Shown: positions 3,257 to 63,675, counted from the stretch's first letter. The stretch is 63,967 nt of DNA from Patescibacteria group bacterium (GCA_041661425.1 JBAZUI010000005.1:1-63967); one strand, 5' to 3'. Notes: generated by a model not told the origin, from the sequence alone. Made by a program: numbers and translations.

Positions 3257-4516
3257 ATGCAAGTCATTGCCGATCTTCATGTCCATTCTCGATTTTCTCG
3301 TGCTTGTTCCAAGGAATTGACGCTCGAGAATAATGCTTTGTGGTGCTCAAAAAAAGGCGTTGGGATTTTAGGGACCGGTGACTTTACGCATCCGGCGTGG
3401 TTTAAGGAAATAAAAGAAGAGCTCATCGAGGACGAACCGGGATTATTCCGGCTCAAATCTGGCCATTATCCTGATATTCGTTTTATCCTTTCGACCGAGG
3501 TCTCGCAGATTTATAAGAAGAATGGAAAGACGCGTCGCATCCACAATATTGTTTTTGCGCCTTCGCTCGACGTGGTTGAGAAGATTCACGCCTGGCTCGA
3601 TGATCATCACTTCAATCGTAAAGCAGATGGTCGACCGATTCTTGGCATCGATTCAGAAGTGTTGTTAAAAGCACTCAAAGAAATCGACAAACGTATTTAT
3701 CTCATCCCTGCGCACGCATGGACGCCGTGGTTTTCGGTATTTGGATCATATTCTGGATTTGATTCACTCGAGGAATGCTTTGGTGACATGACAAAAGAAA
3801 TATTTGCGATTGAAACCGGGCTCTCAAGCGATCCGCTCATGAATCGTTCACTTTCGCGTCTCGATCACATCGCACTCATTTCAAATTCCGACGCGCATAG
3901 TCCGCGTAACTTTGGACGTGAAGCAAATGTGTTTGAGATGAAAAAGAAATCATATGATGAATTATTTTCGATTTTAAAATCACGCGATCCGAAAAAGTTT
4001 TTGTCTACGATTGAGTTTTATCCAGAGGAAGGGAAGTATCATGCGGATGGTCATGCGGACTGTGAATTTTGGTGTGAGCCGGAAGAAACGATTCGTCTGG
4101 GCGGTATTTGTCCGAAGTGCAAAAAGCAATTGACCGTTGGCGTGCTCGCACGAGTGAAAAAACTAGCGGATCGTGAACGTCTAAAAATCATGCCGAAGAA
4201 TCAGATCCCGTTCAAATCCATTGTTCCTCTTCAAGAGGTCATTGCCAAGTCTCTTGGGGTTGTGGGGACCGGATCAAAAAAAGTTCAGGCGCAATATGAA
4301 AAGCTGCTTGAACTTGGAAATGAATTTTTTATTCTTCTGGACGCGGATTTGAAGATGATTGGAGAATTTTCTCCCCCAGCTGTTGTTGAATCTATCCGAC
4401 GTATGCGAGCAGGAAAGATGCATATTCGTCCCGGATATGATGGCGTGTATGGGCAGGTAGAATTTTATTTCGAAAACGACCCGCTACCAATTGCGAAACA
4501 AACCTCACTTCTCTAA
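3257..4516 (+). CDS. PHP-family phosphoesterase with Zn-ribbon (COG1379 / EndoQ-like)
   Basis: N-terminal ADLHVHSRFSRA PHP motif, GTGDFTHP, and a CPKC..Zn-ribbon-like CxxC. GAGGTG Shine-Dalgarno 5 nt before ATG 3257. Confidence 0.7.
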   Translation: MQVIADLHVHSRFSRACSKELTLENNALWCSKKGVGILGTGDFTHPAWFKEIKEELIEDEPGLFRLKSGHYPDIRFILSTEVSQIYKKNGKTRRIHNIVFAPSLDVVEKIHAWLDDHHFNRKADGRPILGIDSEVLLKALKEIDKRIYLIPAHAWTPWFSVFGSYSGFDSLEECFGDMTKEIFAIETGLSSDPLMNRSLSRLDHIALISNSDAHSPRNFGREANVFEMKKKSYDELFSILKSRDPKKFLSTIEFYPEEGKYHADGHADCEFWCEPEETIRLGGICPKCKKQLTVGVLARVKKLADRERLKIMPKNQIPFKSIVPLQEVIAKSLGVVGTGSKKVQAQYEKLLELGNEFFILLDADLKMIGEFSPPAVVESIRRMRAGKMHIRPGYDGVYGQVEFYFENDPLPIAKQTSLL

Positions 4517-4518
4517 CA

Positions 4519-4783
4519 CGAAGGACTTTTGTATTTGAGTGCAGAATGAGAAGAGGCAGAGGCTTTTCGCGAGACGAATACAAAACAAGGAGAAGCTTTA
4601 GATTTAGATGCAGCACGAGGAAAAAACCGAGCAACGAGGAGACGTGTGCAGATTTATTTTCGAAGGACTTTTGTATTTGAGTGCAGAACAAGGAGAAAAC
4701 CGAGTAGCAAGGAGCCGTACATAGATGTACGGTGACGAAGCACGGAGGTTTTCGACAAAGTTATGCGCCAAATACAGAAGTCC
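4519..4783 (+). repeat. Nested/tandem array of family A repeats (two truncated units plus one full unit at 4665-4783)
   Basis: CGAAGGACTTTTGTATTTGAGTGCAGAA occurs at 4519 and 4661 (142-bp period). A left-arm-only copy sits at ~4606-4645. Confidence 0.85.
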
Positions 4784-4794
4784 TTAAATAAAAA

Positions 4795-4840
4795 TCCCCG
4801 CTCCTCCACATTGCATCGCTTGAAGGTGGGCGGGGAAATT
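4795..4840 (-). terminator. GC-rich hairpin plus T-run downstream of the small basic-protein gene
   Basis: Minus strand reads CCCCGCCCACC...GGAGGAGCGGGG followed by ATTTTTATTT. Confidence 0.5.
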
Positions 4841-4841
4841 T

Positions 4842-4958
4842 TTATTTGCGGCGCTTTGCAGCTTTGCGCTTTTTTGCAACGTGCTTCTTGGCTACGTGCT
4901 TCTTTGCGCGCTTCGCTGGTTTACGCTTTGCAACTTTGCGTTTCTTTTTTGCTGGCAT
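4842..4958 (-). CDS. 38-aa lysine/arginine/alanine-rich protein (MPAKKKRKVAKRKPAKRAKKHVAKKHVAKKRKAAKRRK)
   Basis: Not in the ORF track because it is under 60 aa. ATG at 4958 is preceded by GGAGG 9 nt upstream. TAA stop at 4844-4842, with a terminator immediately downstream. Confidence 0.55.
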   Translation of the reverse strand: MPAKKKRKVAKRKPAKRAKKHVAKKHVAKKRKAAKRRK

Positions 4959-5125
4959 ATTAATGGAGCCTCCTTTCTGGCATTACTGCCGTGTCATTTC
5001 TTACGATTCGTCGACCACGAATTTTTTTTGTAAGAAATGCATCATGCATCGATGCGTGATGCAATAGTATTATTATACGTCAATTACAAAACAAAAAAAT
5101 AATTTTACAGAAAGTTATGCACAAG

Positions 5126-5160
5126 AGAGAAAAATTCTCCCACATTATTTTTCGTGGGAG
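5126..5160 (-). terminator. Rho-independent terminator after the NUDIX gene
   Basis: Minus strand reads CTCCCAC-GAAAAATAAT-GTGGGAG followed by AATTTTTCTC. Confidence 0.6.
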
Positions 5161-5167
5161 AAAATGA

Positions 5168-5608
5168 TTACATGTACTTTTTGAAATGCTCGGAAAATTT
5201 TGAGAACGTATATTGAAACCCAGTGTGTAAAGGATTTGGTAAACGATCGAGTCGGTGCCAACAGATTTCATCAATTTTTTCCGGTTCATTTATTTTGACT
5301 TCCAGTGGATTCACTTTTACAAAAAATGGAATGACAAGCCAATGAGTTTTTACTCCGTTAGATTCACGAAAAATATCGTGAGCGGGAAGTCGTTCTTGAA
5401 TTTCCCCTTGACATCCGTATTCCTCCAGAACTTCCCGTAAGACATTCTGCTCGATACTTGTCCCAAATTCTAGTTTTCCGGCCCCAGTATCCCAGTGGCC
5501 TTGTTCATCGCGACATTTTTGACTCCGTTTGTGAAAAAGAAAGTTGCCTTCGCTATCATGACAAAAAAATGGTGTGGAGATGCCAATAAAGTCGATGCCG
5601 ATGATCAT
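5168..5608 (-). CDS. NUDIX hydrolase
   Basis: Nudix box GKLEFGTSIEQNVLREVLEEYG (GX5EX7REUXEEXGU). Confidence 0.85.
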   Translation of the reverse strand: MIIGIDFIGISTPFFCHDSEGNFLFHKRSQKCRDEQGHWDTGAGKLEFGTSIEQNVLREVLEEYGCQGEIQERLPAHDIFRESNGVKTHWLVIPFFVKVNPLEVKINEPEKIDEICWHRLDRLPNPLHTGFQYTFSKFSEHFKKYM

Positions 5609-5613
5609 AGAAT

Positions 5614-5633
5614 TGGTGGACTTGAGGGGATTC
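5614..5633 (-). repeat. Orphan copy of the tRNA-Ala 3' end (T-loop to CCA)
   Basis: TGGTGGACTTGAGGGGATTC is identical to 5991-6010. Confidence 0.95.
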
Positions 5634-5990
5634 AGCTTCAGCTCTCGGCTTGCCGTCGCAAGCCTCGGCCCTGCCTACCGGCAGGCAGACTAGCCACCCG
5701 CCTTCGCAAGGCTTCGGCGGGCAGGCCGCCTACAATGGCGGAGTTTATCCACCGAAGCTCCGATTTATCCGTCGTAGCTTTAGCGAAGACGGAAGGAGCG
5801 AAGGAGGAGCGTTCGAATCCCTTCGCAAGCCAAATGGTTGACTTGCGTCTAATTTAATCAATAAATTTCCACGTATTTTGCTTCAGATACAAGGCATGGG
5901 TGGCAGTCGAGGAAACGTACCCAAATGTACGTTGACGAAAACTGACGGGACCCATAACACAGTAGCTTAACAAAATTCGTGGAAATTTCT
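5634..5990 (-). mobile_element. Insert between tRNA-Ala and its displaced 3' end: family B element (5634-5847) plus a family-A-like hairpin (5863-5988)
   Basis: The family B sequence is shared with 63358-63550 and 40810-40930. It abuts the tRNA fragment through the ...CCGAGAGCTGAAGC end (minus strand). Confidence 0.7.
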
Positions 5991-6067
5991 TGGTGGACTT
6001 GAGGGGATTCGAACCCCTGACCTCCTGCTTGCAAAGCAGGCGCTCTAACCAGCTGAGCTACAAGCCC
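5991..6067 (-). tRNA. tRNA-Ala (anticodon TGC), CCA encoded
   Basis: Manual fold: acceptor GGGCTTG/CAAGTCC, anticodon arm CCTGC-TTTGCAA-GCAGG, T-arm AGGGG-TTCGAAT-CCCCT. Confidence 0.95.
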
Positions 6068-6135
6068 GTAGATATTTCGTGGTCGTTATCGTATCGAAAA
6101 AACTCAAATTCGTCAATGAGAAGGGGATCTATTGC

Positions 6136-7113
6136 TTATCGAAGCTTACGCACCTTAATCTCTTGCAAGCGTTTCTTTCCGGGTATTTTTTTAAGGATTC
6201 CTTTTTTTGCCCCGAAATATTGAATCACACTTTGGGCGTTGTGCATGGCGTATCGGAGAGCATCCTCGATAGAATATTCCTCCATGAGAGCGGCGAGAAA
6301 TCCGGAACCGAATGCATCACCCGCGCCTGTGCTTGAAATGACTTTTACAGCTTCTGGTCGTACAAACCAGAGCGCATCATTTTGAAAAGCATACGCTCCA
6401 CGCGGACCATCGGTTATGACGAGCAATAAATCTTTTTGTGCAATCCCACGACAGAGTTTTACCACATCTCGTGATTCGGTATTGAGAAGAAGTTGTGCTT
6501 CTTCTAAATTGATATTCATGATCGTGAGGTTGCGAATAATCGAAGAGAAATTTTCAATGCCTTTTTTTAATTCTTGCGCACCGGGATTGTAGCAGGTTCG
6601 AATATTGTGCGCGACGCAATATCGAATGACTTTTTGCGCAAGCGCAAGATCCCCTCCGAGAGAGGCAATATACATCCAACGCGCTTTCAATTTCTCGAAT
6701 GGGATATCTTTTTCATGGATGTGAGCGCTGGCTCCTCGCCACACCAAAGCAGACCGTTCTCCGTCTGGGGCAGTTAGCAAGACAGAAAATGCCGTCGGTT
6801 CTTGAGGGTCGCGTTTGATGAAGGTTGTTTCAATGTGTTCATTTTTAAGATCGCGAATGATTTCATCGCCAAAATCATCTTTTCCAACGCGGACGATGGC
6901 TCCAGTTTTCATGCCAAGTCGTGCAAAGGTGACGGCCGCATTCGTGGCACCACCTCCAGTTGAGATGACGCATTGATCAAGATCAACTTTTTCTCCCAAC
7001 GGAATACACTCAAATGCTCCAGGCGTCTGAGGATCGGGATCAATACGGGTGAATGCTTTTGAAACAAGAAATGCATCACGGGCTGCGGAACCAAGGGTAA
7101 GAATGTCGTACAT
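6136..7113 (-). CDS. PfkB-family carbohydrate kinase (ribokinase-like)
   Basis: GGGATNAAV and TGAGDAFGSGF motifs. ATG at 7113 lies inside the longer track ORF. Confidence 0.85.
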   Translation of the reverse strand: MYDILTLGSAARDAFLVSKAFTRIDPDPQTPGAFECIPLGEKVDLDQCVISTGGGATNAAVTFARLGMKTGAIVRVGKDDFGDEIIRDLKNEHIETTFIKRDPQEPTAFSVLLTAPDGERSALVWRGASAHIHEKDIPFEKLKARWMYIASLGGDLALAQKVIRYCVAHNIRTCYNPGAQELKKGIENFSSIIRNLTIMNINLEEAQLLLNTESRDVVKLCRGIAQKDLLLVITDGPRGAYAFQNDALWFVRPEAVKVISSTGAGDAFGSGFLAALMEEYSIEDALRYAMHNAQSVIQYFGAKKGILKKIPGKKRLQEIKVRKLR

Positions 7114-7120
7114 ACAAGAT

Positions 7121-7960
7121 TTATTTTGATGCTTTTTTTTGGGTTTTTTTCCACATCTCAATGCTTTCAGAAAATTCTTGAGCAATCTGTCGGATGGCTT
7201 CTTTTTTTGAAATGCGTTTCTTCTCGTAGAGCGTGAGCGTTGGCATAAAAATCGTTCGCCCGATTGCCATACCAGAGACCACGCCACTTTTTGCTGCGGT
7301 TTGGATCCAGGTGCGCACTTGTTTTTTTGATGCTCCACGACCAAGAACAATGAGTGGAATCTCGGTTGCTCGTGCGACTTGTTGCCATTCTTTTGTGGAA
7401 TTCAACCCTTCGACTTTCCAAAGATCAGGAAGAATTCCATCTTGTTGAAGATTCTTAATGGCGTCGATTAAGAGTTGATATTTCGGTTTCGATCCCTTTA
7501 CAAGAATTTCAATGAGAATTTTTATGTGCAAATCACGAGCGATCATTTGCAACTCTTTGAGGCGTTTATGGATGCGCGCGTGGGTTTCTTGCTTTTCCGG
7601 AGCGTAACGAATCAGGACCTTCGCATAGGTTGGCCGGAATCGTTTCAAATGGTCACTCAATGCATCAGAGTATTCAAACGCCAGCGACTCTCCACCGCTT
7701 TGTTCGGTTGTGAGCGCAAATGCTATTTTTTTTCTTCTGGCACTTTTTAGTATTTTTTTCCCAAATTCCTCATCGACAAGAATTGCGAATTCTTCTTTCT
7801 TTTTTGAGTTCCGATAGACTTCAATGAAGCCGGAAAAAATAATGCGCTTGAGGTGACGAATGCGTCGAGCCTCTCTGGATGCCACCGGGTAAGTTGTTCG
7901 CAATAGTTCTTCAGCGAATGAGGCTCGGTGATCAAAGGGGAGAAAAAAGAGATTTTTCAT
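7121..7960 (-). CDS. Aldolase-like protein (DUF2090 / IolC C-terminal-like, class I aldolase fold)
   Basis: Starts MKNLFFLPFDHRASF. ATG at 7960 overlaps the upstream stop (ATGA). The family call is from memory of the motif. Confidence 0.55.
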   Translation of the reverse strand: MKNLFFLPFDHRASFAEELLRTTYPVASREARRIRHLKRIIFSGFIEVYRNSKKKEEFAILVDEEFGKKILKSARRKKIAFALTTEQSGGESLAFEYSDALSDHLKRFRPTYAKVLIRYAPEKQETHARIHKRLKELQMIARDLHIKILIEILVKGSKPKYQLLIDAIKNLQQDGILPDLWKVEGLNSTKEWQQVARATEIPLIVLGRGASKKQVRTWIQTAAKSGVVSGMAIGRTIFMPTLTLYEKKRISKKEAIRQIAQEFSESIEMWKKTQKKASK

Positions 7961-8490
7961 AGAGATTTCAATTGCCGGCCATGATAAAGGAAAATGGGAA
8001 GAGCACCTTGTTCGGCAAAGGATGCTTCCGGTGTGATATTCGGGAGTGGCCAGGCTTCCACAAGTACCAGACAATCATCTTTGAGTCGCGGACCGATTTT
8101 TTTGATGATTTTTTTGTAGGAGTTTGGCATGAGAAAGAGCGTCACCACGTCGGCGCGGGAAGGATCAATGGAAAAAAGATTTCCAAAGCGAAGGGAGACT
8201 CCATGATATTTTTTTTGGTGCATGAGTATCCGAATCCAGCCGATGCAAAGAGGAATAAGAGAGATGTCGTACCCAATATATCTGAGTGTTGGCGCGGTTT
8301 CCTTGAGTCCGAATAAGAGCGAACCGTCCCCGCATCCCAAATCCATGACAATGCCTTGAGCAGGGAGGGGGATTTTTTTCAATTGGTTTCGTTCTCGTTT
8401 TCTTGTCGGGACCCATGGCGCGGCAGAGAGTCCGGCAATGGCCGCCGAAGCAATGAAACTCCAAACAAGAAGAAAAAGAATCCATTTCAT
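7957..8490 (-). CDS. Class I SAM-dependent methyltransferase with N-terminal membrane/signal segment
   Basis: VMDLGCGDGSLL motif I. Confidence 0.7.
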   Translation of the reverse strand: MKWILFLLVWSFIASAAIAGLSAAPWVPTRKRERNQLKKIPLPAQGIVMDLGCGDGSLLFGLKETAPTLRYIGYDISLIPLCIGWIRILMHQKKYHGVSLRFGNLFSIDPSRADVVTLFLMPNSYKKIIKKIGPRLKDDCLVLVEAWPLPNITPEASFAEQGALPIFLYHGRQLKSL

Positions 8491-20789: not shown

Positions 20790-21300
20790 CAAATTCTGAT
20801 CTAGTCATTGCTGCGCCTTACGACACCGCGACTGCAGGCGTCGGGCCATTGGGCCTTCTCGCAATGACGTGGGGGTATCGCGTCAAAACTCACCCTGCCG
20901 TCATTGCGAGCCCGCAGGGCGAAGCAATCCGTTCGAATAGATTGCTTCCCGCCTTCGCTCATTCCGTCTTCGCTAAAGCTACGACGGATAAATCGGAGCT
21001 TCGGACGGGCAGGCGTCGGCCATGAGGCCTTCTCGCAATGACGGCAGAAAGGAAGCTCCGAAGTTATCGTGTTGCTTATGTTGTCATTGCGGGGTGCGGA
21101 TGGGTCTATGCCATCCCTCTGCCATATCGCGAGGAACTTGTGAGAATTCTCGGTGGCGTAGCAACCCATCCCCCTGCCGTCATTGCGAGGAGTGGATGAA
21201 AAATTATTCGGTGACAGAGCGATCCGTGCCCCCTGCCGTCATTGCGAGGAACTGTCTTACATTTTTTGGTGACGAAGCAATCCAGTATTGCCAATGGGTG
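20790..21300. repeat. ~500-bp mosaic of hairpin-forming repeat modules upstream of the FG-GAP gene
   Basis: CGTCATTGCGAG occurs at 20899, 21178 and 21236, with its complement CTCGCAATGACG at 20858 and 21033. GCAGGCGTCGG..GGCCTTCTCGCAATGACG is repeated at 20835 and 21010. A family B/C hairpin module sits at 20964-20992. Confidence 0.8.
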
Positions 21301-21403
21301 TTCTACGTCCCAACGCCGATTCTTTGCTGTGTATAAAGCGAAAAATCTTTGGATTGTCGTGTTATACTTAATCCATCATTTGTCTTATTTGCATTGCAAA
21401 GAA

Positions 21404-22276
21404 ATGAGCAGACCAATTCCTAAATTTAATATCCAAAAAGCATCCATTGCCATGATGTTTGCTTTGTTGTGTTTTATCCCTTTTGCTTTTGCGGCAACAA
21501 CGCACAATCTGTCGCTTTTTGTTGAGTTTACCGGTGAGAGCACAAATAGTAATTATGCGGGGCGGACGGTCGCCCCTGCCGGCGATGTAAACGGTGATGG
21601 TTACAAAGATTTCCTTATTGGAGCGTATGGCAATAATGATGGTGGCGCCAATACAGGTGCGGTGTATCTCATTTACGGTTCAGCAACACCGTTTACCAGC
21701 AGAAACCTTACAAATGACATAAAATTTTGGGGAGAAGCTGTTGGAGATTTGGTCGGCGAAACCTCTATTGCTTCTGCCGGGGACGTGAATGGTGACGGAT
21801 ACGATGATATTCTTATTGGCGCCTATAGAAATGATGATGCCGGAGCAGATGCCGGTGCCGCATATTTGATTTACGGCCAGGCGGCTACGCTTACCAGTGC
21901 TTCGCTTTCAACAGCAATCGAATTTACCGGTGAAGTCGCCGGAGATAAAGCCGGTTATTTCGTTGCCTCAGCAGGGGATGTGAACTTCGATACGTATGAT
22001 GACTTTTTGGTCGGCGCCTATATGAATGACGATGGCCCCGGTGACAATGGCGGTGCCGCCTATCTCATTTACGGTCAGGCTGATCCACTTGTGAGTGCAT
22101 CACTCTCAACCGCCGTGGAGTTTACCGGTGAAGTTGCCGGAGATAACGCTGGTACTAGTGTTTCTTCAGCTGGGGATGTAAATAACGACACATATAGCGA
22201 TATTCTCGTTGGTGCACAATCGAATGACGATGGCCCTGGTGACGATGGCGGCGCGGCTTATCTTATCTATGGCTAG
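21404..22276 (+). CDS. FG-GAP repeat surface protein, N-terminal part (signal peptide plus 4 repeats), ending at an in-frame TAG
   Basis: MSRPIPKFNIQKASIAMMFALLCFIPFAFA signal. Repeats of the form AGDVNGDGYDD..GAAYLIYGQA. The TAG at 22274-22276 replaces the CAG (Q) of the repeat consensus. Confidence 0.8.
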   Translation: MSRPIPKFNIQKASIAMMFALLCFIPFAFAATTHNLSLFVEFTGESTNSNYAGRTVAPAGDVNGDGYKDFLIGAYGNNDGGANTGAVYLIYGSATPFTSRNLTNDIKFWGEAVGDLVGETSIASAGDVNGDGYDDILIGAYRNDDAGADAGAAYLIYGQAATLTSASLSTAIEFTGEVAGDKAGYFVASAGDVNFDTYDDFLVGAYMNDDGPGDNGGAAYLIYGQADPLVSASLSTAVEFTGEVAGDNAGTSVSSAGDVNNDTYSDILVGAQSNDDGPGDDGGAAYLIYG

Positions 22277-22312
22277 GCCGCGCCACTCGTTAGTGCCTCG
22301 CTCTCAACGGCT

Positions 22313-25300
22313 GTGGAATTTACCGGTGAAGTTGCCGGAAACCAGGCCGGGTATTCTGTTTCTTCAGCCGGGGATGTGAATAACGATACTTACGATGACT
22401 TTTTAGTCGGAGCTTTCTTGAATAGTGACGGCGCGAGCATGGCCGGCGCTGTTTATTTAATTTACGGTCAGGCCGCTCCGCTTGTCGCCGCTTCACTTTC
22501 AACTGCGGTGGAGTTTACCGGTGAAGGTGTAATGGACTTTGCAGGCACCAGTGTTTCTTCAGCTGGGGATGTGAATAACGACACATATGATGATTTTCTC
22601 GTTAATGCAGCTTTTAACGATGATGGCCCGGGTAATGATGGAGGAGCGGCTTATCTCATTTACGGTCAGGCCGCGCCACTCGTTAGTGCTTCTCTTTCGA
22701 CCGCAGTTGAGTTCATCGGTGAAGCCGCTATTGATTATGCGGGCTACACGGTTGCCTCGGCCGGGGATGTGAATAACGACACTTATGATGATTTCCTGGT
22801 CGGCGCCTTTATGCATCATGGATATGGTGCCGATTCCGGTTCGGCTTATTTTATTTATGGTCAAGCTAGCGCACTCACGAGCGCGTCACTTTCAACCGCG
22901 GTTAATTTTGGTGGGGAAGCTTATGAGAATACCGCTGTGGCGTCTGATGACTCCGCGGGGAGTGACATTGGCAATGCTGGAGATGTGAACGGCGATGGGT
23001 ATGATGATTTCCTTGTAGTGGCAAATGCGAATGATGACGGTGGCAGCTCATCAGGATCGGCGTATCTTGTGTATGGTCAAGCTTCGCTTCTTGCGGGAAC
23101 ATCATTGTCAAATGCGGTTGAATATATCGGTGAAACGGTGTCGGATATGGTTAATCTTGCGAAAACAGCCGGAGACGTGAATGGTGATGGGTATGATGAT
23201 TTTCTCATCACAGCTTCTTTTAACGATAGCGGTGCTTCAAACGCCGGCGCCGTGTATCTTATTTACGGTCAGGCCGCACCATTGGCTGGTGGATCGCTAT
23301 CAAGTGTGGCAGTGAAATATACTGGGGAAGGTATTAACTACAAAGCCGGTGTCGCTCTTGCATACGGAGATATCAATGGCGATGAATATAGCGATTTTCT
23401 TATTGATGCCGCTTCAAGTAGTGATGGAAAAACCGTTGTTTATCTTGTGTATGGTCAAGCCGCACCATTGGCTGGTGGATCGCTATCAACGGCTGTTGCA
23501 TTAACCGGTGCGCCAGCGGGTGGCTATAATACTCCAGTTTCGGTCGGCGATGTAAACGGAGATGGGTATGATGATATTTTAATCGGAAATTATACTTTAA
23601 ACATTGCCTATCTTCTCTACGGTCAGGCCGCATCATTTGTGAGCGGATCCTATCTCGCATCATCCGTTCAGTTCACACCTGAGGTGAGTGGCGATTTGGC
23701 AGGAATGGACGTTGCGTTGGCGGATATCAACGGCGATGGATATCGCGACATGATTATTTCCGCCACACAAAATGACGATGGCGCAGTGAATGCCGGTGCG
23801 ATTTATCTGATTTATGGACAAGCCGCCGCACTTACAAACGCCTCTCTTTCGACTGCAATAGAATTTATGGGCATAAATGCCACAGCGTCCGGAGCCTCAA
23901 TTGGACTCGCTGATCATTGTGATGTTAATAACGATGGATACGACGATCTTTTTATTGGATTTAAAGATGACAATACCACCTATTACACTCTTGGTCAGGC
24001 AGCTCCCCTTGTTGGTGGATCGCTTTCAACATTCAATACATTCACGGGTGAAGTTGTTGGCGATAGTGCCGGTGATTCTGTCTCTTGTGCCGGTGATGTG
24101 AACGGCGACAATTATAATGAAATAATCATCGGTGCAACAGGAAATGATGATGCTGGATCCGGTGCCGGTGCCGCCTATCTTGGCTATCTCTACGTTGACT
24201 CCGATCACGATGGCATGCCGGGAACAGCCGGCATTCTCGACGGCAATGATTTTGACGATAATGACCCGAGCGTTCAGGATAGTTGGATTTCGAATTTGAG
24301 CGTTGGTGGTTCCTCGGATGGGTGGGGTGGAGTACTCATTCAATTTACCCTCGACGATCCAGACGATGATGATACCGATCAGGCAAGAATTCAATATAGC
24401 CTTGATAACGGCGCAACATGGGCAGATCCAACACTCAGCACATCAGATGCCGATACTACCGCAACCTATGGCGATCCGGATATTAATAATTCCGTTGCGT
24501 ATCAGGTTGGACAATCCGGTGCCTACATTACAACGTCTTCCGGAGCAAATACGATTCAGGTTCGATGGAATTCCGCGGTTGATGTTCCAACAGCGGCAAC
24601 ACAAACCGCAAAAATTCGCGTGACCCCTTATGACGGGACTTCAGAAGGAACCTCAGCAACAAGCTCAGCGTTTTCACTCAATAACCTCGAATCAAATCCC
24701 AGCGATTCCACTCCATCACAACCAAAGGTCACGCCGGAACTGACGGGCCTCGTCATCTCTCAAGGCAATGGCACTACGACCGGTACTCTCACCGAAGGGG
24801 AGTGGACAAGTGTTTCTTGGCTCACACTCGGCTCCGTTCCGTATGTGCTTGTTTCTTATTCAACAGATAATGGATCCACCTGGCAGACGCTTGTTGGTCC
24901 CATCGCAAATCGCAGTAATATCGCCTTTACCATGCCAAGTGATCTGGGTGACACCTTCATGCTCAAGGTTGAAGGAACTGATCTTGCTCTTGTTCTCGAT
25001 ACGCTCACGAGTGATCCAATTATCATCCTCGAACAGACAACCACCCCACCAACATCAACGACTCCGGTCGTAACTCCACCAGCCACGTACGTCCCAGTGG
25101 TTCCGGTTTATGCTCCCTCTCCCATTCTTGGTTACCAGTTCCCAACAACTCCAACGGATACAACATCGGCTACTCAAACTCCCGCAGAAACAGGCGATGA
25201 ACCATCTCCCATCCTTACCTATACCTCTCCCGAGGCCGCATCTCCCGTCACAGGTGAACAGGAAGAGGTGACTGAAGTCTTCCCTGGAGACTATATCAAG

Positions 25301-25684
25301 AGTCCATATTTCCCAACGGTCTATTATGTCACGGAAAACATGGAGCGCCGTCCATTCATGGACGCTCAAACCTACTTTACCTATGAGAGTTCGTTTAATG
25401 CCGTAAAGATCGTTTCTGATGCCACGCTTCCTCTCCTCAATCTTGCCGGTCCCATGCTTCCAAAGCCTTCGACCGTTCTTGTGAAAATCCAGAGTGATCC
25501 AAAGGTCTATCTCGTCTCCACAAATCCCGACAGTGAATATCGCCCCATTCTTCATTGGATCTCGAGCGAGGAATTGGCCGTCAAGATGTACGGCCCTCAA
25601 TGGCCACAATACGTGATTGATATTCCTGTTACTCTATTCGCACGATTTGAGATTGGAGACAAGATTGCCCTGAATCCGAATTGA
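22313..25684 (+). CDS. FG-GAP repeat surface protein, continuation (same frame as 21404-22276; 10 more repeats, T/P-rich linker, C-terminal conserved domain)
   Basis: Frame is continuous from 22277 (AAPLVSASLSTAVEFTGE...). Track ORF start 22313 is a GTG inside the repeat. Confidence 0.85.
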   Translation: MEFTGEVAGNQAGYSVSSAGDVNNDTYDDFLVGAFLNSDGASMAGAVYLIYGQAAPLVAASLSTAVEFTGEGVMDFAGTSVSSAGDVNNDTYDDFLVNAAFNDDGPGNDGGAAYLIYGQAAPLVSASLSTAVEFIGEAAIDYAGYTVASAGDVNNDTYDDFLVGAFMHHGYGADSGSAYFIYGQASALTSASLSTAVNFGGEAYENTAVASDDSAGSDIGNAGDVNGDGYDDFLVVANANDDGGSSSGSAYLVYGQASLLAGTSLSNAVEYIGETVSDMVNLAKTAGDVNGDGYDDFLITASFNDSGASNAGAVYLIYGQAAPLAGGSLSSVAVKYTGEGINYKAGVALAYGDINGDEYSDFLIDAASSSDGKTVVYLVYGQAAPLAGGSLSTAVALTGAPAGGYNTPVSVGDVNGDGYDDILIGNYTLNIAYLLYGQAASFVSGSYLASSVQFTPEVSGDLAGMDVALADINGDGYRDMIISATQNDDGAVNAGAIYLIYGQAAALTNASLSTAIEFMGINATASGASIGLADHCDVNNDGYDDLFIGFKDDNTTYYTLGQAAPLVGGSLSTFNTFTGEVVGDSAGDSVSCAGDVNGDNYNEIIIGATGNDDAGSGAGAAYLGYLYVDSDHDGMPGTAGILDGNDFDDNDPSVQDSWISNLSVGGSSDGWGGVLIQFTLDDPDDDDTDQARIQYSLDNGATWADPTLSTSDADTTATYGDPDINNSVAYQVGQSGAYITTSSGANTIQVRWNSAVDVPTAATQTAKIRVTPYDGTSEGTSATSSAFSLNNLESNPSDSTPSQPKVTPELTGLVISQGNGTTTGTLTEGEWTSVSWLTLGSVPYVLVSYSTDNGSTWQTLVGPIANRSNIAFTMPSDLGDTFMLKVEGTDLALVLDTLTSDPIIILEQTTTPPTSTTPVVTPPATYVPVVPVYAPSPILGYQFPTTPTDTTSATQTPAETGDEPSPILTYTSPEAASPVTGEQEEVTEVFPGDYIKSPYFPTVYYVTENMERRPFMDAQTYFTYESSFNAVKIVSDATLPLLNLAGPMLPKPSTVLVKIQSDPKVYLVSTNPDSEYRPILHWISSEELAVKMYGPQWPQYVIDIPVTLFARFEIGDKIALNPN

Positions 25685-35134: not shown

Positions 35135-35645
35135 GTATTCAGGAAATGCGTAAGCCGAATTCTGTTCCAAATGCCGAAGCATTGGGGCGGTCATCTCTCT
35201 AGGGCGTCTCTTGCGAGACGTCTCATGCGAGCTACCTAATTTGCTCTTGCACCAAGGCAGGTTTGCCACCGCTCCATGTCGCCATGGAGGGAGACTGGTG
35301 GCTCCCGTCAGGGAACCTCCAATCACTTTTCACCTTTTGTTCTACGCAGTGGAACAATCCTGAGTACCGAGCTTGTCGAGGTATCGAAGGGTCACGTTGC
35401 ACCTCTCGACTCGCTTTGCTCGCTCGGGATCGTTTTACTGCGTAAAACTAGTATTGTCTCTGTGGCGCTATCTCTGGGTTTCGGGAAGGGACCGAGGAAC
35501 GGATAAATCCAGTTCCTTGAACTCTTCCTATGTCCCGGTTGCCGTTAGCAACGCCTTTTGATTTTCGATCTTGCGATCGAAAAGGTGTTCGGACTTTCCT
35601 CTTGGGATCCGAAGATTCCAAGTAACCACCACCATTTCCTGAATG
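35135..35645 (-). ncRNA. rnpB: RNase P RNA, bacterial type A, unusually long (~510 nt)
   Basis: On the minus strand: GAGGAAAGTCCGAACAC (P4 5'), GGTGCAAGAGCAAATTAGG, CTAGAGAGATGACCGCCC, and ACAGAATTCGGCTTAC (P4 3'). P1 pairs ATTCAGGAAATG with CATTTCCTGAAT. Confidence 0.9.
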
Positions 35646-40577: not shown

Positions 40578-40788
40578 GGTGCCGGGCAGGATGGCTGTAT
40601 CATTCTTCGTTCCGACTGACGAGGTAGGCTTGAATGGCCTGTTCGCGTCCTCCTACGCTCCTCAGCATTACCTCGGAGCTTCGGAGGACAGCCGTAGCTT
40701 CAGCCGACAAGCAGGGTGGCTTGCCAGCCGTTTTATCCACCGTAACTCTAGTGAAGGTGGAAGCTTCAGCGATAGCTGAAGCGAAGGC
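40578..40788 (-). repeat. Family C tRNA-trailer element (copy 3), following the displaced tRNA-Leu 3' fragment
   Basis: Minus strand begins GCCTTCGCTTCAGCTATCGCTGAAGCTTCCACCTTCACTAGAGTTACGGTGGATAAAACGG..., near-identical to 51257-51470. Confidence 0.85.
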
Positions 40789-40809
40789 TGGTGGGCGGAG
40801 AGGGACTCG
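40789..40809 (-). repeat. Orphan copy of the tRNA-Leu(CAG) 3' end (T-loop to CCA)
   Basis: TGGTGGGCGGAGAGGGACTCG is identical to 40936-40956. Confidence 0.95.
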
Positions 40810-40935
40810 GCCTCGACTCTCGGCTTGCCGTCGCAAGCCTCGGTCTGGCCACCGCCTCGCCATTCTGCCTGCTGGCAGAATATGGCTCCGGCGTTCGAGT
40901 CCATTAACAAGCCAAATGGTTGGCTTGTCGACCCT
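40810..40935 (-). mobile_element. Short family B element inserted between tRNA-Leu(CAG) and its displaced 3' end
   Basis: Shares CTCGGCTTGCCGTCGCAAGCCTCGG and GTTCGAGTCC..ACAAGCCAAATGGTTGGCTTGT with the B copies at 5634 and 63358. Confidence 0.7.
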
Positions 40936-41021
40936 TGGTGGGCGGAGAGGGACTCGAACCCTCAAGAGATTACTCTCACAAGCTTCTGAAACTTGCGTGT
41001 CTACCGTTTCACCATCCGCCC
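40936..41021 (-). tRNA. tRNA-Leu (anticodon CAG), long variable arm, CCA encoded
   Basis: Manual fold: acceptor GGGCGGA.., anticodon arm CAAGT-TTCAGAA-GCTTG, T-arm GAGGG-TTCGAGT-CCCTC. Confidence 0.9.
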
Positions 41022-50125: not shown

Positions 50126-50202
50126 GGGTCTGTAGCTCAGTTGGTTAGAGCGCCGAGCTTATACCTCGGTGGTCGATGGTTCGAGTCCATCCAGACCCAC
50201 CA
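50126..50202 (+). tRNA. tRNA-Ile (anticodon TAT), CCA encoded
   Basis: Manual fold: acceptor GGGTCTG/CAGACCC, anticodon arm CCGAG-CTTATAC-CTCGG, T-arm GATGG-TTCGAGT-CCATC. The body resembles bacterial tRNA-Ile. Confidence 0.85.
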
Positions 50203-50365
50203 GCCTTCGCTTCAGCTATCGCTGAAGCTACGGCTGGCAGGCCATCCTGCCTTCCACCTTCACTAAAGTTACGGTGGATAAAACGGCTGGCAGGCCACCC
50301 TGTCAGCTGAAGCGAAGGCTGTCCTCCGAAGCTCCGAGGCAATGCCGAGGAGCGTAGGAGGACAT
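50203..50365 (+). repeat. Family C tRNA-trailer element (copy 1), starting at the nucleotide after CCA
   Basis: GCCTTCGCTTCAGCTATCGCTGAAGC...CCACCTTCACTAAAGTTACGGTGGATAAAACGG...GCTGAAGCGAAGGCTGTCCTCCGAAGCTCCGAGGC...GGAGGAC. Confidence 0.85.
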
Positions 50366-51021: not shown

Positions 51022-51046
51022 ACTTTTCCGCGTTCAGAATCTATCC

Positions 51047-51170
51047 GAGAACTTTTCCTTTTGGATGCAGAACAAGGAAGAACCAAGGCTTTTTGTGAGA
51101 CGTACCCAAATGTACGTTGAACAAAAAACGAAGGTTCTGACGAAGCTATGCGCCAAAAGGAGAAGTTCTC
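51047..51170 (+). repeat. Family A structured repeat (variant core), between the membrane-protein gene and tRNA-Val
   Basis: Outer arms GAGAACTTTTCCTTTTGG / CCAAAAGGAGAAGTTCTC. Core GATGCAGAACAAGG...ACGTACCCAAATGTACGT...GACGAAGCTATGCGCC. Confidence 0.8.
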
Positions 51171-51179
51171 TGTAAGTGA

Positions 51180-51256
51180 GGGCGTGTAGCTCAGCTGGTT
51201 AGAGCGTCACATTGACATTGTGAAGGTCAGAGGTTCGAGTCCTCTCACGCCCACCA
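51180..51256 (+). tRNA. tRNA-Val (anticodon GAC), CCA encoded
   Basis: Manual fold: acceptor GGGCGTG/CACGCCC, anticodon arm TCACA-TTGACAT-TGTGA. Confidence 0.93.
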
Positions 51257-51490
51257 GCCTTCGCTTCAGCTATCGCTGAAGCTTCCACCTTCACTAGAGT
51301 TACGGTGGATAAAACGGCTGGCAAGCCATCCTGCTTGTCGGCTGAAGCGAAGGCTGTCCTCCGAAGCTCCGAGGCAACGCCGAGGAGCGTAGGAGGACGC
51401 GAATAGGCCATCAAGTCTGCCATCTCGTCAGTCGGAACGAAGGATGCCCTCCGAAGCCCCGTTTACAGCGGGGCGAAGGAGGGCAGGATT
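51257..51490 (+). repeat. Family C tRNA-trailer element (copy 2), starting at the nucleotide after CCA
   Basis: Same sequence family as 50203-50365 and 40578-40788, with an extended 3' part (CTCGTCAGTCGGAACGAAGGATG...). Confidence 0.85.
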
Positions 51491-63127: not shown

Positions 63128-63166
63128 TAACCTCCAGCGTGGAAAGAAAAAAATTTATTTTCCATT

Positions 63167-63336
63167 CCGCCTGCACAAGGGCGGAGTTTATCCACCGAAG
63201 CTCCGATTTATCCGTCGTAGCTTTAGTGAAGACGGAAGGAGCGAAGGAGGAGCGTTCGAATCCCACGCAAGCCAAATTGTTGGCTTGCTATGAAATACCA
63301 ACCCACAAGGTTCCAATGATTTGAAACATTCTGGGT
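63167..63336 (-). mobile_element. Older, 5'-truncated tandem copy of the family B element plus spacer
   Basis: Near-identical to 63429-63598 (262-bp period). Confidence 0.75.
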
Positions 63337-63357
63337 TGGTGGACGCCAAGGGATTCG
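63337..63357 (-). repeat. Orphan copy of the tRNA-Val(TAC) 3' end (T-loop to CCA)
   Basis: TGGTGGACGCCAAGGGATTCG is identical to 63599-63619. Confidence 0.95.
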
Positions 63358-63598
63358 GCTTCAGCTCTCGGCTTGCCGTCGCAAGCCTCGGCTTAGCCAC
63401 CCGCCTTCGCAAGGCTTCGGCGGGCAGGCCGCCTGCACAAGGGCGGAGTTTATCCACCGAAGCTCCGATTTATCCGTCGTAGCTTTAGCGAAGACGGAAG
63501 GAGCGAAGGAGGAGCGTTCGAATCCCACGCAAGCCAAATTGTTGGCTTGCTATGAAATACCAACCCACAAAGTTCCAATGATTTGAAACATTCTGGGT
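63358..63598 (-). mobile_element. Family B element (63358-63550) plus spacer, inserted between tRNA-Val(TAC) and its displaced 3' end
   Basis: Shares almost its whole length with 5634-5847. Confidence 0.75.
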
Positions 63599-63675
63599 TG
63601 GTGGACGCCAAGGGATTCGAACCCCTGACCTTCTCGGTGTAAACGAGACGCTCTAACCAGCTGAGCTAGGCGTCC
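63599..63675 (-). tRNA. tRNA-Val (anticodon TAC), CCA encoded
   Basis: Manual fold: acceptor GGACGCC/GGCGTCC, anticodon arm TCTCG-TTTACAC-CGAGA, T-arm AGGGG-TTCGAAT-CCCTT. Confidence 0.93.

Follow-up and report, generated by a model that had tools for sequence, protein, structure and literature searches.

A gene-less, folded insert at tRNA T-loops in Patescibacteria: a probable, hitherto undescribed family of miniature mobile elements aimed at tRNA genes

The stretch of DNA under study, called the window throughout, spans 63,967 nucleotides of a Patescibacteria group bacterium. It carries a tRNA-Ala(UGC) gene on the minus strand at 5991-6067, which was called by ARAGORN (tgc) and by the Rfam tRNA model (76.3 bits). 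The 3' end of this gene is present twice. Specifically, TGGTGGACTTGAGGGGATTC, which on the plus strand is the reverse complement of tRNA-Ala positions 57-76, occurs in two exact copies, one at 5991-6010 within the intact gene and one at 5614-5633. The window holds no third copy even at three mismatches, and 100 shuffles gave 0 matches. Because one base past the CCA is common to both copies, the identity is 21 nt rather than 20 nt, with a gene-proximal copy that takes in the A at 5990 (5990-6010) and a displaced minus-strand fragment made up of positions 57-76 plus 1 nt (5613-5633). An earlier note on this DNA had described an intact tRNA-Ala with a displaced 20-nt copy of its own 3' end, and the gene calls, the exact repeat, and the shuffles all bear this out. 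It had also stated that the repeat starts in the T-loop as it does at the tRNA-Leu and tRNA-Val genes of the window; the placement in the T-loop holds, whereas the starting nucleotide differs, being G57 at Ala (TTC/GAATCC) and C56 at Leu and Val (TT/CGA...).

Two features lie between the copies, in agreement with the earlier description. The first is a long-type element of what we call family B, at 5634-5847 on the plus strand, a non-coding structured core that was identified by covariance model and is read opposite to the tRNA. It is 214 bp long with about 60% GC, compared with 43-45% in its surroundings, and the match to covariance model R1 covers 5614-5846 (67.6 bits, E = 3e-15). Between family B and tRNA-Ala is spacer S (5846-5989, no strand assigned), which holds the second feature, a long hairpin of family A at about 5863-5988. 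This 126-nt hairpin has a DNA fold of -27.6 kcal/mol (z = -6.3) and aligns with family-A copies at 465-600, 4515-4795, and 51040-51180; it is a separate repeat, nested in the terminator-like spacer of the Ala-locus element. Long family-A hairpins of about 125 nt are located in the 23S-5S spacer, upstream of tRNA-Val(GAC), and beside the NUDIX gene, as well as in the Ala-locus spacer. The NUDIX gene itself, whose start codon at 5608 had been said to adjoin the orphan fragment, was confirmed: the ORF at 5168-5608 on the minus strand encodes a NUDIX protein (Pfam E = 2.5e-13), and its ATG lies 4-5 nt beyond the displaced fragment. The PfkB kinase gene neighbouring tRNA-Ala has its best matches in Patescibacteria, Uhrbacteria-like, and a Logan contig from the same population ends inside the tRNA.

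The interval from tRNA-Ala to a gene of the MJ0043_C family is hypervariable among relatives (window 4517-5612 versus L007 5010-5680 and the interval in L012, L014, and L016, the L numbers being our labels for other sequences), which suggests that this flank is an insertion hotspot. Its contents include the NUDIX gene in the window, a lysine-rich mini-ORF in L007, and, in L012, FG-GAP/YkuD genes along with a DGR-type reverse transcriptase with bAvd.

Family B elements carry no gene; the mobile element is put at 120-215 bp, and the whole folded module at 120-350 bp. At the Ala locus, an invariant 27-mer, CTCTCGGCTTGCCGTCGCAAGCCTCGG, comprising hairpin hp1 and its flanks, lies at 5642-5668 (plus strand), 8 nt from the junction with the tRNA fragment. 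Exactly three copies of it occur in the window, each 7-8 nt after a tRNA fragment, with 0 expected by chance. An internal T-loop copy, GTTCGAATCCC, inverted with respect to the tRNA gene, is found at 5811-5821 (plus strand), and the element ends in terminal hairpin H (CAAGCCAA-N4-TTGRCTTG, 5826-5845, plus strand), which is covarying helix 7. In the form CAAGCCAA-N4-TTGGCTTG, this hairpin has four copies in the window, all at the right ends of family B elements, against an expectation of 0.04. Read in the sense of the tRNA, the unit begins with the tRNA up to C56 and a gene-proximal, probably new, copy of positions 57-76, followed by spacer S and hairpin H. H is followed by the T-loop together with the 3' strand of the T-stem, both in antisense, and by a variable hairpin, hp2; next is a two-part stem, P1, which encloses hp1 with the 27-mer, and then the sequence from C56/G57 to the 3' end again, followed by the old flank. 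Spacer S is usually a terminator-like hairpin, the stem of which can reach into the CCA. Across loci, the break is always at C56/G57 beside the conserved 27-mer arm. This distal arm is invariant, and the tRNA-proximal end of the insert is without conserved sequence.

The same arrangement is repeated at two other tRNA genes of the window. At the Leu locus, an insert at 40789-40935 (plus strand) starts with a displaced 3' fragment of tRNA-Leu(CAG) (40789-40809), one copy of a 21-nt repeat whose second copy is at 40936-40956. This is followed by a short-type family B element of 118 bp (40810-40927, plus strand; 157.9 bits with the covariance model, and folded), which includes the internal T-loop copy GTTCGAGTCC (40893-40902, plus strand), and by a spacer of 8 nt that leads to the intact tRNA-Leu(CAG) (40936-41021, minus strand). 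At the Val locus, matches to the covariance model reveal a tandem array (63160-63598, plus strand) with a 262-nt period at 99% identity. Its outer unit is truncated and consists of a partial family B element (63160-63287) and a spacer (63288-63335); over 191 nt, it is 99% identical to the inner unit, which contains a displaced fragment (63336-63357), a full family B element (63358-63549), and a 48-nt spacer (63550-63597). The intact tRNA-Val(UAC) lies at 63599-63675 on the minus strand, and the repeat copies are at 63336-63357 and 63598-63619. The Ala and Val cores are near-identical (about 95%) over their whole length, starting at the base next to the fragment and running through hairpin H, but the flanking 3' end is in each case that of the local tRNA. 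Their spacers are unrelated, whereas the spacer of the Val locus is homologous to that of a tRNA-Tyr locus in another assembly (L002). The tandem array was absent from the earlier note, as were the inverted T-loop copy within family B and the identity of the 126-nt hairpin as a separate, nested repeat.

The displaced Leu fragment is followed, right after its CCA, by the same GC-rich repeat that stands behind the intact tRNA-Ile and tRNA-Val(GAC) genes. Since this flank is typical of intact genes, the displaced fragment is the old 3' end. The GC-rich repeat, family C, consists of a long-range stem (GCCTTCGCT...AGCGAAGGC) and then a GTCCTCC...GGAGGAC hairpin, and it begins at the first base after the CCA of tRNA-Ile, of tRNA-Val(GAC), and of the displaced Leu fragment. 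Copies are located at 50203-50365, 51257-51400, and 40640-40788 (reverse complement) in the window, at 7378-7522 in L002, at 5010-5110 in L007, and downstream of tRNA-Ala in L012, and similar elements stand behind tRNA-Thr, tRNA-Ala, and other genes in other Patescibacteria. Family C may likewise be an element directed at the 3' ends of tRNAs, or it may be a shared trailer or terminator module. The tRNA-Ile gene in question (50126-50202) was assigned the anticodon TAT (UAU) by ARAGORN, which is unusual for bacteria, as they normally use a CAU tRNA-Ile modified to lysidine.

Family B has a conserved fold, a three-way junction plus an extra hairpin. Helix P0 is formed when part of the displaced fragment's T-loop and T-stem pairs with the internal antisense copy, and the boundary between element and flank falls exactly at the P0/P1 junction. 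For four short copies, RNAalifold predicted a consensus fold in which 22 of 43 pairs show double changes. In an alignment of eleven copies that was fitted to the model, with pairing statistics that lean towards structure, 92.4% of cells were paired compared with 69% in shuffles, and 33 of the 43 pairs had changes on both sides; controls in which partners were slid gave pairing of at most 46%. On its tRNA-sense strand, the Leu unit takes up the consensus fold (z = -6.6) and leaves the acceptor strand and CCA as a free 3' tail, while the other strand takes up an alternative fold (z = -4.0). The helices contain 12 G:U and 10 A:C pairings, counts that show no strand bias and do not point to a specific folded strand.

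At all nine loci examined, the internal inverted copy matches the T-loop class of the neighbouring tRNA, over 9-15 nt. The Ala, Val, Tyr, and Ser units have GAATC here, the Leu unit has GAGTC, the Pro unit AAATC, and the Arg unit GATTC. At the Ser locus of L003 and the Pro locus of L006, 8 nt of the acceptor 3' strand are also present in antisense, on the other side of H. Together with a similar copy at tRNA-Gly of L006, this places the tRNA 3' end in sense-antisense-sense order, and in all three units a cloverleaf-like fold with a true acceptor stem is possible. The window copies contain only the T-loop part of the antisense tRNA copy. Their internal copies match other tRNAs slightly better than their own, which suggests that these copies were inherited and not made anew with every insertion.

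Searches of other assemblies with the central 21-24 nt of the 27-mer extended this pattern beyond a single genome. A 24-mer scan of one genome per species (185k representatives) returned two matches, both in metagenome-assembled genomes of Patescibacteria (L002 and L003). A metagenome scan with the family B pattern returned one new locus (L006), one duplicate, and one chance match in a coding gene (L005), and the viral contigs of IMG/VR gave 0 matches for the 24-mer and for the right-end pattern. The full 27-mer is present in the three Patescibacteria assemblies found in this way. The same layout was seen in four other Patescibacteria assemblies at tRNA-Tyr (L002), tRNA-Ser and tRNA-Arg(UCU) (L003), tRNA-Pro (L006), and tRNA-Ala (L011), bringing family B to 6-7 tRNA species in at least five genomes. 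A covariance model built from four short copies found family B only beside tRNA 3' ends and added divergent copies behind three tRNA-Arg genes in L003 and behind tRNA-Ala in the AT-rich L011. Among the three Arg copies, only that at Arg(UCU) has a displaced fragment and an inverted T-loop copy; those at Arg(CCG) and Arg(GCG) are without a matching fragment. The repeats are exact over 20-21 nt at Ala, Leu, Val, and Tyr, and measure 17-19 nt at Ser, Arg, and Gly. As at the Val locus of the window, the Ala locus of L011 is a tandem array with a truncated outer unit. Its two units (6030-6265) have a terminator loop that is exactly inverted between them (TTTA versus TAAA), which could stem from a hairpin flip or from two substitutions.

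Two of these sequences have features of their own. L003 is an 8-kb stretch from a member of the Paceibacterota in which four of five tRNA genes have B-like units (2167-2460, 7483-7636, and 7884-8000), some of which are flanked by a recurring motif, GGTCAGGAATATTTT. Its tRNA genes do not encode the CCA. Gene-proximal copies there read N73-CC, whereas displaced copies and other tRNAs read N73-CA; therefore, the two copies are not simple duplicates. In L006, tRNA-Gly(GCC) is followed at 1942-2190 by an unrelated core in the same architecture: the 3' end recurs as a direct repeat of 20 nt, there is a terminator, and the whole 3' end is also present in antisense, split by a hairpin (9 nt of it acceptor antisense). 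The unit folds into a shape resembling a cloverleaf, acceptor stem included (z = -7.7). The same layout around an unrelated core means that the architecture is wider than family B.

The earlier note had proposed to look for empty sites in relatives, and such sites were found. L007 is syntenic with the window over genes for DUF4349, transketolase, RluA, a methyltransferase, DeoC, PfkB (75% identical), and tRNA-Ala. The 3' end of its tRNA-Ala is identical to that of the window, with no family B, no second fragment, and no NUDIX gene. L012, L014, and L016 likewise have a plain tRNA-Ala without family B or a second fragment. An empty attB is thus present at tRNA-Ala in four relatives, and direct repeats of the tRNA 3' part flank the inserts, two marks of an integrase-mobilised element or CIME. 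Given the flank of the Leu fragment, the displaced Tyr fragment of L002, which retains its own terminator, and the empty sites, it is probably the displaced copy that first ended the gene, and the gene-proximal one that was added. By analogy with the Leu locus, this would probably hold for the displaced tRNA-Ala copy as well.

No gene that could move the element was found near the copies examined. Recombinase, transposase, reverse transcriptase, and Cas1 genes were absent from the 30 window ORFs that were scanned and from the neighbours of the L003 and L004 copies, consistent with the previous description of the inserts as tiny and without an integrase. Translation of family B compared against 5.8 billion proteins found nothing and gave no coding capacity of note. 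Rfam 15 yielded no credible match over family B at E <= 10; at the Ala and Leu loci, the same threshold gave weak chance matches only (YrlA, and a permuted tmRNA at 20 bits that arises from the T-loop plus CCA). A promoter scan of the Val locus detected no promoter-like site. In the window as a whole, only tRNA, RNase P, and rRNA passed the Rfam gathering score.

Two further features of the window are worth recording. The RNase P RNA (35135-35642, minus strand) is 508 nt long compared with a 367-position model. Peripheral helices are expanded at two places, by about 90 nt and by about 55 nt, and these expansions may be further hairpin-repeat insertions in a structural RNA. In addition, an FG-GAP-type repeat array with a period of roughly 198 nt covers 21242-25684 and is divided between two adjacent ORFs (21242-22276 and 22313-25684). 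One repeat unit has GGCTAGGCC where the other units have GGTCAGGC, so the two ORFs may represent one very large repeat protein that is split by an in-frame stop.

Several identities were considered for family B and set aside. A tRNA-like gene on the plus strand was not called by ARAGORN, and its would-be T-stem is unpaired. A group I or group II intron does not fit, given the small size of the core, the lack of any match to a ribozyme, and a tRNA that is contiguous as it stands. For rolling-circle elements of the IS91 type, which target GTTC, the break does follow GTTC, but the origin-bearing end would be the variable one and the conserved end of family B abuts neither GTTC nor CTTG; this identity was not adopted. 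Finally, tRNA-primed reverse transcription was rejected on the ground that the Gly copy of L006 ends in CAA instead of CCA and has no reverse transcriptase nearby, although it is kept as a sub-case of the target duplication discussed below.

Taken together, our observations suggest that family B is a group of miniature mobile elements, aimed at tRNA genes, that has not been described before. With no enzyme gene near the copies examined, and with its architecture and fold, it is therefore a non-autonomous insertion element specific to tRNA T-loops and not a decayed island. The earlier suggestion of non-autonomous miniature elements mobilised in trans is supported by the range of tRNA species and genomes, the empty sites, and the lack of a nearby enzyme. 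As for the mechanism, we tentatively favor site-specific recombination in trans at C56/G57 of the T-loop with a tRNA 3' end borne by the element, at a probability of roughly 40%. Family B would insert between C56 and G57, bringing with it a fresh copy of the T-loop-to-3'-end segment, the spacer, H, the antisense copy, and the core. With a fresh 3' copy supplied, the tRNA gene would stay functional, and the original 3' end would be displaced to the far side. The element would essentially be a bare attachment site, in which the point where the 27-mer arm joins the tRNA 3' segment recombines with a tRNA T-loop. The site-specific recombinase would be encoded elsewhere, following the logic of T-loop-class tyrosine integrases and cis-mobilisable elements. 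Its substrate may be single-stranded DNA that, once folded, imitates the duplex half-site of the target, in the manner of attC and the attP of CTX phage; we infer this from the covarying helices and from the antisense tRNA copy, which can fold back on the tRNA segment.

Several observations argue for recombination in trans. T-loop-to-3'-end duplications are the classic footprint of integrase-mediated insertion into tRNA genes and have this as their standard cause. The same architecture recurs at many tRNA species with a break that is always at C56/G57, and relatives have empty sites. A variable tRNA-proximal end combined with an invariant distal arm is what would be expected of a single recombination site and not of a two-ended transposon. 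The conserved, covarying fold and the internal inverted copy that tracks the T-loop class of the target also fit, as do the N73-CC and N73-CA copies of L003. Furthermore, the tandem arrays at Val in the window and in L011, with the newer unit beside the gene, are consistent with successive integrations, which in tRNA-targeting integrase elements stack next to the gene (bioRxiv 10.1101/2020.12.28.424599).

Yet, recombination in trans leaves some of the evidence less well explained. Near-identical Ala and Val cores have the 3' ends of their own tRNAs, and so an element-borne end would have to be swapped for each tRNA species, something that conservative recombination can achieve only by a detour such as accretion with an element already in place. 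Reassortment of this kind fits the unrelated spacers of Ala and Val, but the homologous spacers of Val and Tyr show that the spacer can travel with the core. Classical integrases use a duplex attP, the arms of which should not show compensatory changes, and the G:U and A:C counts give no folded-strand bias. The shared block begins at C56/G57 and does not cover the whole 7-nt T-loop. Moreover, no integrase was found in the 64-kb window or among the neighbours of the L003 and L004 copies.

The strongest alternative is true transposition with a 20-21-bp target-site duplication, which we regard as possible but less probable; integrase-type recombination is favored over it, while the present data do not separate the two. 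Here a trans-acting enzyme would make staggered cuts at C56/G57 and just past the tRNA 3' end, gap repair would duplicate the segment in between, and the internal T-loop copy would select T-loops by pairing with them or by serving as a guide. Candidates for the enzyme include a ruler-type integrase like Cas1 or a casposase, or the event could be target-primed reverse transcription of a trailer RNA. Under this scenario, the own-tRNA 3' end at each copy, despite cores that are about 95% identical between Ala and Val, follows automatically, and it accounts for the far end of the repeat, which at most loci coincides with the tRNA 3' end or misses it by no more than about 2 nt. The internal copy that follows the T-loop class of the target is equally compatible with it, and covarying helices would fit an RNA or single-stranded DNA intermediate. 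There is also a precedent in casposase, with its long duplication abutting the TPsiC-loop of tRNA-Pro and its directional tandem insertion, but that duplication is 15 bp and mostly outside the tRNA (PMC5137440). Against transposition stand the unconserved tRNA-proximal end, which by eye has no consistent terminal inverted repeat, and the systematic difference of the L003 copies at positions 75-76. No Cas1, DDE enzyme, or reverse transcriptase was seen near the copies examined (window, L003, and L004), and, for the reverse-transcription form, the truncated units keep the part that 5' truncation would remove first. In a more specific version, a gene-less element would fold on its antisense tRNA copy to pick tRNA genes, and a trans-acting enzyme would measure from the T-loop to the 3' end, such that a 20-21-bp duplication restores the gene. 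We know of no bacterial transposon with such guide- or mimic-directed, ruler-type integration, and we give this version a minor but real chance; much the same chance applies to the enzymology of family B insertion being new.

Other explanations fare worse. An enzyme-free origin, in which replication switches template at the quasi-palindromes of the T-arm and terminator (of the tandem-inversion-duplication type) and family B spreads by gene conversion, is improbable. It draws on the Ser unit of L003 and the Pro and Gly units of L006, where 3' end, terminator, and antisense copy make up a long imperfect palindrome followed by a sense copy, on the unrelated core in the same architecture at tRNA-Gly, and on the flipped terminator loop of L011. 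However, a 27-mer that is identical across genomes is joined at the same nucleotide every time, the window copies lack the long palindrome, and template switching leaves the arrival of a foreign conserved core unexplained. If anything, we give even less credence to the idea that family B and the displaced fragment form a functional tRNA-like RNA gene that benefits the host, for example, as a processed trailer RNA or an acceptor/T-arm mimic. The tRNA-sense fold of the Leu unit with its free acceptor strand and CCA tail, the cloverleaf-like Gly unit of L006 with its genuine acceptor stem, and the strong covariation are in keeping with such a gene. But family B is missing from close relatives at the same tRNA and is found with a wide range of other tRNAs. 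At several loci a terminator stands between it and the tRNA, and the Val locus has no promoter-like site. The helices show no G:U strand bias, and no Rfam family matches. Last, although T-loop-to-3'-end repeats are a footprint of integrase-bearing islands and prophages, the proposal that the inserts are eroded remnants or decay products of such islands is effectively rejected, as random remnants would not share a covarying fold and an invariant 27-mer abutting the junction in independent loci and genomes, with conserved ends, both junctions intact, and no coding remnants.

Regardless of the enzyme, family B can be viewed as a folded module resembling an attachment site, one that now sits at many tRNA species across Patescibacteria with their reduced genomes, having spread among them. 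Should it depend on a resident recombinase, then it marks the presence of that enzyme and illustrates the small size to which a mobile integrative element can be pared down. If instead the 20-bp duplication is real, it would point to an unrecognised class of integrase with a tRNA-shaped ruler. Either way, family B explains orphan tRNA 3' fragments along with part of the GC-rich repeats that break CPR assemblies, and it offers a compact and conserved substrate that can be tested experimentally.

Among known systems, tRNA genes are classic landing pads for islands and prophages, and to our knowledge all cases that are well understood concern elements of kilobase size that encode an integrase themselves. 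Integrative elements that target tRNAs and their integrase-less derivatives are known, whereas for the gene-less, folded version of 120-350 bp, with a conserved fold, an antisense target copy, and a host range of many tRNAs, our literature search found no description. Mobilisation in trans is known for CIMEs (PMC5704250; bioRxiv 10.1101/2020.12.28.424599). Like T-loop-class tyrosine-integrase elements, CIMEs, and tycheposon remnants, family B has a T-loop-to-3'-end repeat, restores the gene, displaces the old end, and stacks. Unlike tyrosine-integrase elements and CIMEs, it is gene-less, holds an antisense copy of its target, has a covarying multi-hairpin fold, and places one core at many tRNA species. 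Casposons share with it a long target duplication next to the TPsiC-loop and directional, possibly tandem, insertion, but they have a 15-bp duplication that overlaps the tRNA by 5 bp, terminal inverted repeats, and Cas1 with PolB (PMC5137440). We did not assign family B to them, in view of the lack of an ORF in the element, the lack of consistent terminal inverted repeats by eye, and a 20-21-bp duplication that lies inside the gene.

Bacterial MITEs and REP-like repeats resemble family B in being small, non-coding, GC-rich, hairpin-forming, multi-copy, and non-autonomous. In contrast to MITEs, family B has neither terminal inverted repeats nor a duplication of 2-10 bp and targets one nucleotide position of the tRNA; its ends are unrelated to each other (27-mer arm versus variable spacer), and its repeat is 20-21 nt of tRNA, so it was not classed with them. 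In integron attC sites and the attP of CTX phage, which uses host XerCD, folded inverted segments mimic a duplex site, a recombinase from another locus does the work, and the target is left restored and can collect arrays. Family B is not an attC: its target is a tRNA T-loop and not attI or dif, by inspection it has no RYYYAAC...GTTRRRY core motifs (GTTCGAA has C at the first R position), and its fold is a three-way junction plus an extra hairpin instead of an imperfect hairpin. Nevertheless, attC and CTX attP share with family B a structure that is conserved above sequence, inverted segments, and tandem arrays.
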